In this document: positions 17,786 to 34,186 of the stretch, piece after piece | Layout: the number at the start of each line of letters is the position of its first letter | Position numbering within the stretch: the first letter of the stretch is position 1 | Virus record (IMG/VR): IMGVR_UViG_3300040801_001812 | Coordinates: 509-64,508 of that record | DNA: 64,000 bases | Strand: one strand, 5' to 3' | DNA from: a virus | Notes under the pieces: model-generated | The model's database searches: none | Told to the model about the DNA's origin: nothing | What the model saw: only the letters and a program-made list of their open reading frames with translations | Made by a program: the position numbers and the translations under genes

Positions 17786-17985
17786 GCAATATTAGTTGTA
17801 GATCCATATAAAATGAACTGGGCGTGAATCCAAGTGTTTGAGTAACCCTGGTTGGGGATTTGGTGGGTTGGGTTTTGGCTGACTTGGTGGTGGGGTGTGA
17901 TGATGAGATGCGGTTGGTCCCCCTTAACGGGGGATTATCTTGATGCCAACCGGGGTTTTCGTTGTTATATCTCATGGTGTGCCCC

Positions 17986-18014
17986 ACTATGGTGTATTTC
18001 TGGGGGTTTGTCAA
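17986..18014 (-). promoter_or_regulatory. sigma70-type promoter just beyond the distal end of the repeat array
   Basis: minus strand TTGACA-N17-CATAGT. Confidence 0.6.
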
Positions 18015-18018
18015 CTGT

Positions 18019-18676
18019 TAGGGCACTCGGGGGGCATGTTCTTCGCTGATCTTGGTTCACTCGTCGAAGCTGCTCTTTTGGGACGTTGGTTCGCTCTATT
18101 CATTTGCTCTTCCAAGATCGTGGTTCACTCCTCAACAGGTGCTCTTCCTCTATTATGGTTCACTCCCACGCGCTGCTCTTCGATGTGTGTGGTCCACTCC
18201 GTACCTATGCTCTTCGGATGTGATGGTTCACTCGGTGGTATTGCTATTCACTTGCCGTGGTTCACTCTCTCCAGTCTTGCTCATCGGTCGATTTGGTTCA
18301 CTCTACCATTGTGCTATTCGTAAACCTTGGTTCACTCCGAGGAAGTGCTCTTCCTTTATTGTGGTTCACTCACTGAGGATGCTCTTCAGGGGTGATGATT
18401 CACTCTTGTACATTGCTACTCCCACGTCGGTGGTTCACTCCCGTAGTATGTAATTTCCCAACACAATGGTTCACTCCGGCTGGGTGCTCTTTTGGTTTTG
18501 TGGTTCACTCAGGTATCACGCTCTTCCTCGATTATGGTTCACTTGCCGTGAATGCTCTTCCACTCTACTGGTTCACTCGTCTACCGTGCTCTTCGCGCTC
18601 CGCTGGTTCACTCAAAAGAACTGCTCTACTCGAACCTTGGTTCACTCTTCATTGGTGCTCTACTCAATCCGTGGTT
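18019..18676 (-). ncRNA. TIGR-like dual-repeat guide-RNA array (19 units of ~34 nt)
   Basis: sense (minus) unit GAGTGAACCA-N8-GAAGAGCA-N8; 18 copies of the 10-nt repeat at 18053-18638 (14 exact) plus a partial copy at 18672 and a degenerate copy at 18019; spacing mostly 34 nt (34-36); spacers non-repeating; abuts a Nop-domain gene. Confidence 0.88.
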
Positions 18677-31229: not shown

Positions 31230-32717
31230 TCACATCACGTACTGTTCGTATTCGATCTCACCAGCAAGAACGACCTCCCGTGGCAATTCAACCATATCCT
31301 TGAAGTTAGCCCCGATATCAGCTCCCACGCTCAGAGGTACGGGCGACTCGTCGAGCAGCCACTCCAGTCCAGGCGGGCGCTCCATGAGCAGGGTAACCGC
31401 AGGAATAACCGTGTTGACCTCTGCGGGCGGCACGCTGAAGATGATCGAATCATGGATGGTACCCAGGATTTTGGTCTGGTATCTGTTCTCGTGTAGCCAC
31501 TGCCACACACGCGCAATCCCATAGAGAGTGATGTCAGCCGCTGCGCTCTGCACCGGAGTGTTCACCCCAATACGAGACTCACGGCCATCCTGTGAGGCAA
31601 AACCCTTCAACGTGATCGTGCGCCTGCGCCCGAATAGAGTCGTCACGCTGCCGGTCTGCTCGGCGTAGTCGATCATGTCCTCTCGCCATGCTGCGAACTG
31701 AGGGAAGGTGGCGAAGTAGTCCTCCATAAACTGCTCACCTTCCTCCTCTGTGAGACCAGCCTGTCGCGTGAGGCTAAGAAGGCCCATACCGAACATCAGG
31801 CCAAAAGTGAAGGTCTTCGCTGCGGACCTCTTGCTCTTGTACTCTCCGTACTTCGGATGGTCGGTGTCAGCCAGCGCCTCAGCCATGTCATCATAATCGA
31901 GCTTAAAGACTGACGCTGCGACCTGGGTGTGGAAGTCCCTACCCGACTTGAAGAACTCACCCATCTTTTCGTCTTTGGCATACATCCCCGCGACCCGGAC
32001 CTCAACCTGGCTCTGGTCAAGCTCGAACAAGATGTGCCCAGGAAGAGGAACGAACGACCGGCGAACGTCACTGCCAGCCAGACCAAGACCTCTCTTATCC
32101 TTGTCTCGCTTCGGGATCTGCTGAAGGTTGGGGTTCTTACAGGAGAGCCTGCCAGTTGCCGTGCCTCCCGACACACCAGCCGTATCCACGACCTTAGCCA
32201 AGAAGTAGCTCGGGTGGACGCAGCCAGTGTGGGGAGAGTAGAACTTCAACATCGGTTCCCCGAACGAACTCAGCATCTTCTGGAAGTTACGGAGCACGAG
32301 CAGGTCATCACAGAACTGCACGCCCTCGTCTGCGAAATGCTGTAAGGACTCTCGATCTGTGCTCGGGGCATCAGTGGTTTTAGAACGCTTAAATGGTTCC
32401 AACGACAGCCCTTTATCAGTCTGGATACCGAACAGGAACGCACCAAGCTGCTTCGTCGAGCCGAGGTTAAACGCCCCCTTACCCTCCAGCGGGATCTCGT
32501 GATGAGCCATGAAGTCCACCAGCTCGGGAGTTCCCATCAGCTTGTCCTTGTATTCGTTGAAGATACGCTCGGCGTCTGAGATGAAGACCCGGTGCTGCAT
32601 CGGATCAAAGGGGAAGCCGGTGTCCTCGATCTCGACAAAGGCGTTTACCAACACCCGTTGATAATCTGCGAGCCAACGAAGACTGCCCCCCTCTGCCGTT
32701 GTGTCAAAACCTATCAT
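31230..32717 (-). CDS. polA: family A DNA polymerase, polymerase domain only (split gene, C-terminal part)
   Basis: TATGRLSCKNPNLQQIP, motif A DQSQVEVR, DFH, motif B RSAAKTFTFGLMFG, NTPVQSAAAD, motif C HDSI. Confidence 0.92.
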   Translation of the reverse strand: MIGFDTTAEGGSLRWLADYQRVLVNAFVEIEDTGFPFDPMQHRVFISDAERIFNEYKDKLMGTPELVDFMAHHEIPLEGKGAFNLGSTKQLGAFLFGIQTDKGLSLEPFKRSKTTDAPSTDRESLQHFADEGVQFCDDLLVLRNFQKMLSSFGEPMLKFYSPHTGCVHPSYFLAKVVDTAGVSGGTATGRLSCKNPNLQQIPKRDKDKRGLGLAGSDVRRSFVPLPGHILFELDQSQVEVRVAGMYAKDEKMGEFFKSGRDFHTQVAASVFKLDYDDMAEALADTDHPKYGEYKSKRSAAKTFTFGLMFGMGLLSLTRQAGLTEEEGEQFMEDYFATFPQFAAWREDMIDYAEQTGSVTTLFGRRRTITLKGFASQDGRESRIGVNTPVQSAAADITLYGIARVWQWLHENRYQTKILGTIHDSIIFSVPPAEVNTVIPAVTLLMERPPGLEWLLDESPVPLSVGADIGANFKDMVELPREVVLAGEIEYEQYVM

Positions 32718-32732
32718 AGCCTACTCACCCTC

Positions 32733-32939
32733 TCACGCACAGTATAGCGGGATATCGATGAGCTTAGTCAGCAGAGCACATGCAGCAAGATTCTGGTCCT
32801 CTTCACTCTTACCGTGAGTGGCTAAGTAGGCTAGCACGTCTTCCCACAAATCATCCCTCTCAGCGTGTGCCGCCTCATAGTCTGTTTTTGCCAAAGACCT
32901 GATCCTGGCTATTCTATCGCCAATATCTTTAGGTGTCAT
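32733..32939 (-). CDS. small protein inserted between the two polA halves
   Basis: 68 aa, ATGA overlap with upstream gene; DYEAAHAERDDLW. Confidence 0.55.
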   Translation of the reverse strand: MTPKDIGDRIARIRSLAKTDYEAAHAERDDLWEDVLAYLATHGKSEEDQNLAACALLTKLIDIPLYCA

Positions 32940-34186
32940 GGGGCCTTAACCTCCTGCATAGCATCGCTGTGGAACGCCTCCCTGAACAGATGGCGCGTGA
33001 CCACGATGTCCAAACAGCCGTAGGTGGTGAGTAGCTCGGGTGGCGCGTCATACGTCCCGTGCTCCTCGAAGTAGTCGTCCATTTTCTTCTCGTACCCGCC
33101 CAAGTCAGTGATCTGGTAGGCGATCTCCTTCAACGACAGCGGGGACTCCCCATGGATGTTCGCCCACAGCATCATAGTGTCTCGGTCGAGCATACATTTG
33201 TCAACCCCAATTCTCCTAAGTCCTTTGAGGTCATACTTTCCGTTATGCGCGACGATCTTGAAGTACCGAGGGTGGAGCAGCTCGTTGAGCATATCCCGCA
33301 TCTTACCCAGCCAGTTTGGGTCCGATCCGCCTGACCAGTGCTCGGACTGAAGGGGAAGAAGGTAGACGGGGTTGGTGTCGTTGGGGCTATTGGGTCCGCT
33401 TCCTTCGAGATCAACGATACCGAACTGGATACAGTAGACCTTGAAGTCGGCAGTGTACATCTCATCGTCCAGGGAAGAAGCCTCGATGTCGATGGCGAGG
33501 TACTCACCCTTATGATCCCTGGTAAGCAGGCGTGCTACCTCCTTGAATTGGCGTGCGCTCTCGATCACGCGGAAGTCGAAGCGGTCCATCTTGGAGTCGT
33601 CCCAGTACGGCGAGCCTTCACTGGAGAAGACTGCCTTGGCACGACGGATGTCGGCTACCCAAGGATCCAACTTCGAGGGGGTGGATAGAACAGAGAAGGG
33701 GTGGTCTATTGCCATCACCTGCGCGGACCAGCCGTCTCCCTCGAACTCCTGCAACTTACCGTGCGTCTTAGCGATAGAGGCGTTGTTGCGGGTCACGGCG
33801 ATCTGGGCGTTCTTCCCGAGCACGATGATAAGACGGGGCTTAAAACGGTTCAGCTCCTCCATCAAGTACCGGTCGGCGCACGTTTTCATGTCCTTCACCT
33901 TGATTTTGCCAGCCGGGTAGCACTTCACGGCGTTGGTAGCGAAAACGTCTCCGGTATTTCCGACAGAGAAACCCGCGTCCTTAAGAGCTTCGATCACCAG
34001 CCTCCCCTGCTCATCAGCGAAGGAGAAGCCTCGCGGTGCCTCATCACGCGAGGGAGCGTCACCCACTATGACAACTCCCCCAGTTTTGTTCAGGTTGCCC
34101 CGACCCGAGATGCAGGTCACACCGTCCGTCTCGTGCAGTGGGCAGAGCGAGCAAGACCTGTTGTAGATTCCCTTCAGAAGACTCAT
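32936..34186 (-). CDS. family-4 UDG-like domain fused to PolA 3'-5' exonuclease (split polA, N-terminal part)
   Basis: CSLCPL, GDAPS, TNAVKCYP, C, HPF (UDG4 Fe-S pattern); Exo I DIE, Exo II HNGKYD, DT, Exo III YGCLD. Confidence 0.85.
   Translation of the reverse strand: MSLLKGIYNRSCSLCPLHETDGVTCISGRGNLNKTGGVVIVGDAPSRDEAPRGFSFADEQGRLVIEALKDAGFSVGNTGDVFATNAVKCYPAGKIKVKDMKTCADRYLMEELNRFKPRLIIVLGKNAQIAVTRNNASIAKTHGKLQEFEGDGWSAQVMAIDHPFSVLSTPSKLDPWVADIRRAKAVFSSEGSPYWDDSKMDRFDFRVIESARQFKEVARLLTRDHKGEYLAIDIEASSLDDEMYTADFKVYCIQFGIVDLEGSGPNSPNDTNPVYLLPLQSEHWSGGSDPNWLGKMRDMLNELLHPRYFKIVAHNGKYDLKGLRRIGVDKCMLDRDTMMLWANIHGESPLSLKEIAYQITDLGGYEKKMDDYFEEHGTYDAPPELLTTYGCLDIVVTRHLFREAFHSDAMQEVKAP

Follow-up and report, generated by a model that had tools for sequence, protein, structure and literature searches.

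A 64,000-nt stretch of phage DNA (the window; positions 509 to 64,508 of IMG/VR record IMGVR_UViG_3300040801_001812) carries on its minus strand a dual-repeat TIGR array together with the gene for a nuclease-less TasA protein. This is a known kind of system, dual-repeat TIGR-TasA, whose loop repeat is here a minor variant in length. The array has 34-nt units, and this is due solely to a loop repeat of 8 nt, which is 2 nt under the usual 10; the guides are unshortened. The locus has the following features:

18664..19518, minus strand: tasA (P0001), encoding a Nop-domain protein of 284 aa without a nuclease (PDB sequence matches, Pfam, AF2 model, structure search)
18024..18678, minus strand: dual-repeat TIGR array of 19 units (motif parse, pattern matches against shuffles, lag-34 autocorrelation)
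18672..18678, minus strand: 5′-truncated first edge repeat TCAACCA (RNA UCAACCA), within the tasA coding sequence (read from the sequence)
18441..18476, minus strand: most degenerate unit, mid-array, 36 nt, loop GGAAAUUA with 4 mismatches (array parse)
18024..18028, minus strand: 3′-truncated last edge repeat GAGTG (RNA GAGUG) (read from the sequence)

Motif parsing resolves the array (window 18024-18678, minus strand) into 19 units, each consisting of an edge repeat GAGUGAACCA (10 nt), spacer A (8 nt), a loop repeat GAAGAGCA (8 nt) and spacer B (8 nt). Unit length is 34 nt in 14 of the 19 units, which is the mode, 35 nt in three and 36 nt in two. Seventeen units have a spacer A of 8 nt and two have one of 9 nt, and spacer B has 8 nt in 16 units, 9 nt in one and 10 nt in two. 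The 18 full-length edge repeats lie between a 5′-truncated first and a 3′-truncated last edge repeat, and truncated edge repeats at the start and end of the array are as published for TIGR. When the window was searched with the pattern GAGTGAACCA-N8-GAAGAGCA, allowing up to 3 mismatches, 15 matches were obtained, all of them on the minus strand between 18037 and 18647, whereas shuffles lead one to expect 0.10. Furthermore, the autocorrelation of the window is highest at lag 34, and mean column conservation in the array is 0.94 for the repeats as compared to 0.42 for the spacers. The array went unreported by Tandem Repeats Finder, since variable sequence makes up half of each unit. The array is a genuine dual-repeat TIGR guide-RNA array. 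A first-pass annotation of this DNA had proposed as much, with 8-nt spacers, a 34-nt unit, and alternating 10-nt and 8-nt repeats with a few spacers of 9-10 nt, and the full parse confirms this picture, with the earlier coordinates a few bases off. CRISPR arrays have a single repeat of about 25-36 nt that alternates with spacers of similar size, and they have cas genes close by. A CRISPR array was rejected here, the locus having two different repeats of 8-10 nt, spacers of 8 nt and a Tas protein as its neighbor gene.

Both repeats start with GA; the edge repeat ends in CCA and the loop repeat in GCA, and the bases bordering the repeats are variable. The edge repeat accordingly has GA(G) after one spacer and CCA before the next, and the loop repeat has GA(A) and GCA at these places, such that edge and loop have GA and CA in common and differ at the third position of box D and at the first of box C. 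TIGR nomenclature places box C (CCA) ahead of the spacer and box D behind it (PMC12045711), and the earlier assignment of GA to the box D position and of CCA/GCA to the box C position fits this definition. According to a published rule, the box motifs covary between edge and loop. The edge (CCA) and loop (GCA) of the window are less symmetric than this rule has it, and this counts against our best explanation. In the window loop, the positions equivalent to the pair between the G of box D and the C of box C are A3 and G6, and there is no G-C closing pair. The same holds for many 10-nt loops of relatives, for instance GACAGAAACA and GAAAGCAACA.

In five of the 19 units a spacer is 9 or 10 nt long or the loop is degenerate, and these units may be non-functional. 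The worst loop, GGAAATTA with 4 mismatches, belongs to the unit starting at 18476. Mismatches counted per unit revealed no gradient of degeneracy along the array, and the gene-distal unit has one loop mismatch and the usual truncated terminal edge. The gene-distal unit had been taken to be the most degenerate one and to indicate a polarity like that of a CRISPR trailer end; neither idea survives the count, since the worst unit lies mid-array and a 3′-truncated edge repeat is the standard end of a TIGR array. We detected no intrinsic minus-strand terminator after the array end, including the stretch up to the next gene. A few bases past the array end, on the minus strand at 17986-18014, there is a sigma-70-like promoter match (TTGACA, a 17-nt gap and CATAGT; 10 of 12 positions), and beyond it a CCCCC-TTAAC-GGGGG hairpin is found at 17918-17933.

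The 3′ end of tasA overlaps the first array unit by the last five codons and the stop codon, a TGA that falls within spacer A of this unit. The C-terminal tail of the protein, PSTTD, resembles read-through into the array. Similar junctions are seen in relatives: in the close relative P0003, the tas stop codon is a TAA directly ahead of the CCA in the first truncated edge repeat of its array, and the array of locus L105 likewise starts within the end of its tas gene. Among PDB sequences, the window protein matches TasR (9mty, 1.1e-13) and SpTasH (21kl, 1.6e-10), with a weaker match to the IS621 recombinase. These alignments begin at residue 154 of TasR and residue 135 of TasH, which is past their nuclease domains. 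The sole Pfam match is PF02371 (IS110-type; residues 97-137, 2e-5), and Pfam gave no match to HNH or RuvC in the protein. An AF2 model built on a 34-sequence alignment (pLDDT 88, pTM 0.85) is all-helical, with residues 1-18 unstructured and leading directly into the long coiled-coil helices 30-59 and 65-91. When this model was searched against the PDB, the best 11 matches were all TasH or TasR cryo-EM structures (E ~2e-7), followed by the IS621 and ISCro4 recombinases. The protein thus is of the TasA type, with neither room nor signal for an HNH or RuvC domain.

SpTasH processes its pre-tigRNA with a metal-independent catalytic pair, Y289/H296 (PMC13421893). The motif PY259VLEHVPGH267 of the window protein aligns with LY289VQEKLGH296 of SpTasH, and as a sequence motif the Tyr/His pair is conserved as Y259/H267. 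The 34-sequence alignment shows no variation at P256, P258 and H267, and 30 of its sequences have Tyr at position 259. Residues 261-267 are disordered in the AF2 model, and this predicted disorder agrees with the description of the C-terminal processing region of SpTasH as flexible. The Tyr-His loop of the window protein (EHVPGH) contains an extra proline; a correspondence between this proline and the 34-nt unit was considered and rejected, as P0005 (34 nt) is without it and L013 (36 nt) has it.

To place the unit length in context, 132 related loci were fetched, and the period and the consensus repeats were called in each of them. Among 82 distinct Tas proteins with an array, a set in which close relatives of the window are over-represented, the unit is 36 nt in 71 (10+8+10+8), 34 nt in six, 35 nt in three and 37 nt in two. 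The 36-nt unit hence dominates, with about 90% of sampled arrays. In the 80 loci of IMG/VR relatives, which are the less biased sample, the 34-nt unit occurs once (L077). The possibility that 34-nt units are already common among TIGR arrays, which the first-pass annotation had allowed for, is answered by this count: among the sampled loci they are confined to this one IMG/VR locus and the small clade of the window. Altogether, 34 nt is the modal unit in six independent arrays. We found no paper in a literature search pairing "tigRNA" with "34-nt".

In every array with parsed repeats, the edge repeat has 10 nt and the spacers have 8 nt, and it is the loop that varies, with 8, 9, 10 or 11 nt. 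Loops of 8 nt are GAAGAGCA or GAAACGCA in the window clade and GAACAUCA in L077; those of 9 nt are GAAAUCACA in L067 and GAUUGAACA in L105; and L026 has an 11-nt loop, GAGCGUAGCCA. In two further arrays, L099 (35 nt) and L124 (37 nt), only the period was called. The general form of the loop repeat is GA + N4-7 + CA, with N6 as the norm. Hence, the unit of the window is 34 nt rather than 36 nt because the linker between GA and CA in the loop is 4 nt long, not 6. Since the edge repeat and the spacers have the normal lengths of the clade, the geometry of the guide and of its processing should be unchanged: the distance from the box motif to the cleavage site would be the same, and the RNA connector on the far side alone would be shorter. 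The 34-nt unit had originally been interpreted as a compact variant with a target of about 16 bp. This does not hold, as SpTIGR already has 16 variable nt, about 60 distinct relatives share the 10+8+10+8 layout, and the loop alone is shorter. Of the earlier statement that characterized tigRNAs have 36 nt with 9-nt spacers, the length is right for published dual-repeat tigRNAs, and the spacer length is not general, given that SpTIGR and the clade use 8-nt spacers.

In a quick maximum-likelihood tree, the window protein groups with P0002, P0003, P0005 and P0006 in a clade of five that all have 34-nt units (aLRT 80). Their identity to the window protein is 83% for P0002, 80% for P0003, 68% for P0005 and about 67-70% for P0006. 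The sister of this clade, L013 (66% identity), has a 36-nt unit, and the six together have an aLRT of 99. L077 is placed elsewhere in the tree, away from the 34-nt clade, such that the 34-nt state needs at least two changes. The 34-nt units are rare, derived and recurrent. Hundreds of TasA homologues exist at 50-60% identity. No TIGR array was found on the contigs of P0008 and P0009. In L026 (positions 4-225), which has 37-nt units, a 111-nt block consisting of three whole units including their spacers occurs as a tandem duplication of 90% identity. This suggests that TIGR arrays can grow when segments are duplicated and their spacers then diverge, and it bears on the question of how arrays expand.

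On balance, we lean towards the view that loop length in dual-repeat TIGR arrays is not fixed, that this TasA clade has undergone repeated shifts within a range of 8-11 nt (units of 34-37 nt) in which 34 nt arose at least twice, and that functional 34-nt tigRNAs are made by the window clade, with a bare 4-nt linker for a loop and no box C/D closing pair. Other readings of the repeats, of the guide geometry and of the state of the locus have to be weighed against this. GUGA in the edge repeat had been taken as box C-like and as part of a kink-turn. A box C/D snoRNA-like repeat of this sort, in which the edge GUGA and the GA motifs form the kink-turn, would agree with the occurrence of GUGA in the edge repeat, with the GA at the start of both repeats and with the Nop fold of the protein. 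Edge covariation was examined in 59 correctly phased array consensuses. In 44 of the 59, one repeat or more is complementary at both 3/8 and 4/7. Across relatives, the pairs at position 3/8 are GC (41), AT (7), TA (3) and GT (1), and those at position 4/7 are CG (29), TA (18) and AT (5); the window edge repeat has the pairs G3-C8 and U4-A7. As judged from the consensuses, this covariation matches the 2-bp edge stem described for TasR. The flanking positions thus covary as Watson-Crick and not as sheared G-A pairs, and GUGA is unconserved: the inner sequence of the paired repeats is GUGA in just 13 of 52 and GCGA in 24 of 52, with ACGA, AUGA and UUGA making up the rest. Furthermore, the published TasR structure shows compact repeats without a K-turn, and K-turns with L7 are the stated point of difference between snoRNAs and tigRNAs. 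The same GUGA count and the same Watson-Crick covariation led us to reject a box C/D s(no)RNA identity, which entails RUGAUGA/CUGA boxes and tandem sheared G-A pairs. We give the snoRNA-like reading next to no credence, and the kink-turn proposal is abandoned.

The guide geometry could be the canonical 9+9 one, with the first G of each repeat being the ninth spacer position and pairing with a fixed target C. The repeats would then have 9 nt (AGUGAACCA) and 7 nt (AAGAGCA), and the target would be 18 bp long with two fixed bases. The 10-nt repeats can also be parsed as N + AG + NNNN + CCA, which fits the TasR-type parse (CCA + 9 + UG + 4 + ..., PMC12045711; TIGRFinder 14-nt intervals). In this parse the G3-C8 and 4/7 pairs match the TasR positions exactly, and the first repeat base falls into the ninth-spacer slot of the 9-nt TasR geometry. 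However, this base is a constant purine across the array consensuses (G 111, A 7) and hence carries no guide information, and the homologous SpTasH system has 16 variable nt (PMC12045711), with an 8-nt spacer A seen in the cryo-EM of the SpTasH complex (10.64898/2026.08.11.744272) and paired with DNA. Of the earlier idea that the first G acts as a ninth guide base, the position of the base is retained and its guiding role is not, and we consider the 9+9 geometry unlikely. Still less probable, and in our view very unlikely, is that the locus is a decaying relic, or that its 34-nt period reflects a deletion that left the array without function and no longer used by TasA. The five units with off-length spacers or degenerate loops and the missing canonical closing pair of the loop could be seen as signs of such decay. 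However, the repeat columns are far better conserved than the spacer columns, tasA is intact and keeps all family-invariant residues, the same 8-nt loop is kept across a clade of 67-83% protein identity in which each array has different spacers, and an 8-nt loop arose again in L077. The retention of the 8-nt loop across the clade and its reappearance in L077 indicate selection rather than decay. We thus keep to 8-nt guides and a shorter, functional loop.

It is very probable, in our view, that the locus is a phage-encoded dual-repeat TIGR-TasA system operating by a mechanism that we infer to be as follows. The array would be transcribed from the minus strand with or after tasA. Each unit would be bound by a TasA dimer, with one protomer on the edge-repeat ends and the other on the loop repeat, the dimer being proposed because the protein is homologous to the TasR and TasH dimers of solved structure. 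The C-terminal Y259/H267 of TasA would cut the precursor in the middle of the edge repeat and thereby release a tigRNA of about 34 nt, consisting of the 3′ half of one edge repeat, spacer A (8 nt), the loop (8 nt), spacer B (8 nt) and the 5′ half of the next edge repeat. The final edge repeat, truncated at its 3′ end, would be present because it is needed for the last guide to be cut out. The two 8-nt spacers would then base-pair within a contiguous target site of about 16 bp, one spacer on either strand. As TasA has no nuclease domain, the complex would bind and bend the DNA without cutting it, and with Y259/H267 conserved, 34-nt tigRNAs that guide DNA binding without cleavage are to be expected. 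The likely effect would be that transcription or replication is blocked, either in a competing mobile element or in host genes. There is a precedent in the nuclease-less TasA proteins of stem-loop arrays, which were shown experimentally to be RNA-guided repressors (10.64898/2026.09.09.750476). This precedent is limited to the TasA of stem-loop arrays, such that a repressor role in the dual-repeat clade would be an extension by analogy; a repression-type, non-cutting role has been proposed for TasA in general. No target for the 19 spacer pairs turned up in the 139.5-kb genome of the phage itself or in loci of relatives totaling 663 kb, with both tandem geometries and up to one mismatch allowed.

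Among the closest known systems is SpTIGR-TasH of the Salicola phage CGphi29 (NC_020844; 9w03, 9w04, 21kl), which is likewise dual-repeat and phage-encoded and has 8-nt spacers. Its edge repeat, AAGCGAGCCA, is nearly the same as that of the window, both being 10 nt long, and its array as we read it has the layout AAGCGAGCCA + 8 + AAGACAACCA + 8, which gives 36 nt, as compared to the 8-nt loop and 34-nt unit of the window. SpTasH and the window TasA share the Nop fold and the C-terminal Tyr...Gly-His motif. However, SpTasH carries an N-terminal HNH nuclease and cuts DNA, whereas the window protein has no nuclease. Another close system is the dual-repeat TIGR-TasA type (FpTasA of Flavonifractor plautii and a large phage TasA clade), in which, as in the window, a solo Nop effector stands beside a dual-repeat array bounded by truncated edges. 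The norm of the phage TasA clade is GA-N6-CA repeats and 8-nt spacers, from which the subclade of the window departs with a loop linker of 4 nt instead of 6. FpTIGR, unlike the window, has 9+9 variable nt and 36-nt tigRNAs. TaTasR (9mty) has in common with the window the Nop fold, a dimeric tandem-spacer guide, a CCA box C before the spacers and the covarying 2-bp edge stem; it differs in having a RuvC nuclease, 9-nt spacers, 9-nt repeats that start with UG, and a 36-nt tigRNA. Stem-loop TIGR-TasA (MbTasA, BlTasA; 10.64898/2026.09.09.750476) is nuclease-less like the window protein and is the source of the precedent for RNA-guided repression without cleavage. However, MbTasA and BlTasA go with hairpin-flanked units of variable length, have no Tyr/His loop and rely on CUU-motif processing, whereas the window is dual-repeat and has kept the Tyr/His pair.

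The phage genome is a single contig of 139.5 kb (55% G+C) in which there is one tas gene and a single array. The genes around the locus are those of phage replication and recombination, encoding an SbcCD-like nuclease, a UvsX-like recombinase, a gp32-like SSB, a split family-A DNA polymerase and a DnaB-like helicase. Parts of the window are present in three DNA runs, all from one microbial-mat study, and in no listed RNA run. Megablast of 20 kb around the locus against a phage collection gave no match, and tblastn against the same collection returned distant Tas homologues only (26-30% identity), mostly from mycobacteriophages. The split family-A DNA polymerase (window 31230-34186) consists of a polymerase part at 31230-32717 and an N-terminal part at 32936-34186, and both ORFs match phrog_17 at consecutive profile positions. 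The same split layout is found in the relatives L007 and L008, with a UDG-domain ORF, a 65-aa ORF and a 495-aa DNA_pol_A ORF. A Cys-rich ORF of 120-121 aa in the two closest relatives overlaps the start of tasA by 4 nt (L007:3642-4004, L010:3639-4004), and this overlap suggests that the two genes are translationally coupled in L007 and L010; such an ORF is also seen in L011 (645-1010). By eye, no counterpart of it is evident among the window ORFs listed upstream of tasA. Furthermore, short tandem repeats of the GGCAnGGCAn type, with a period of about 10 nt, are found just upstream of the tasA operon in L008 (3322-3643) and L009 (18-339), the contigs that encode P0002, where they are separate from the TIGR array.

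TIGR-Tas systems are under development as very small, PAM-free tools for DNA targeting, and current accounts take the dual-repeat guide to be a fixed 36-nt fold. Its length has been called "typically", "uniform" or "fixed" 36 nt (2026 preprint 10.64898/2026.09.09.750476); the original paper allowed for repeats of 8-12 nt (PMC12045711). Thus, 36 nt is a typical rather than a defining value for dual-repeat TIGR. The general picture of how TIGR systems work is unchanged by this, and a shorter unit does not mean shorter guides. If the window clade does make functional 34-nt tigRNAs, this would contradict the rule of a fixed 36 nt and would define a natural minimal tigRNA scaffold. The variation seen among the relatives suggests that the loop serves as a connector in which changes of length are tolerated, with the constraint falling on the edge repeat and the spacers, and it may be of use for guide design as well as for array-finding software that assumes gaps of 4-5 nt between the box motifs.
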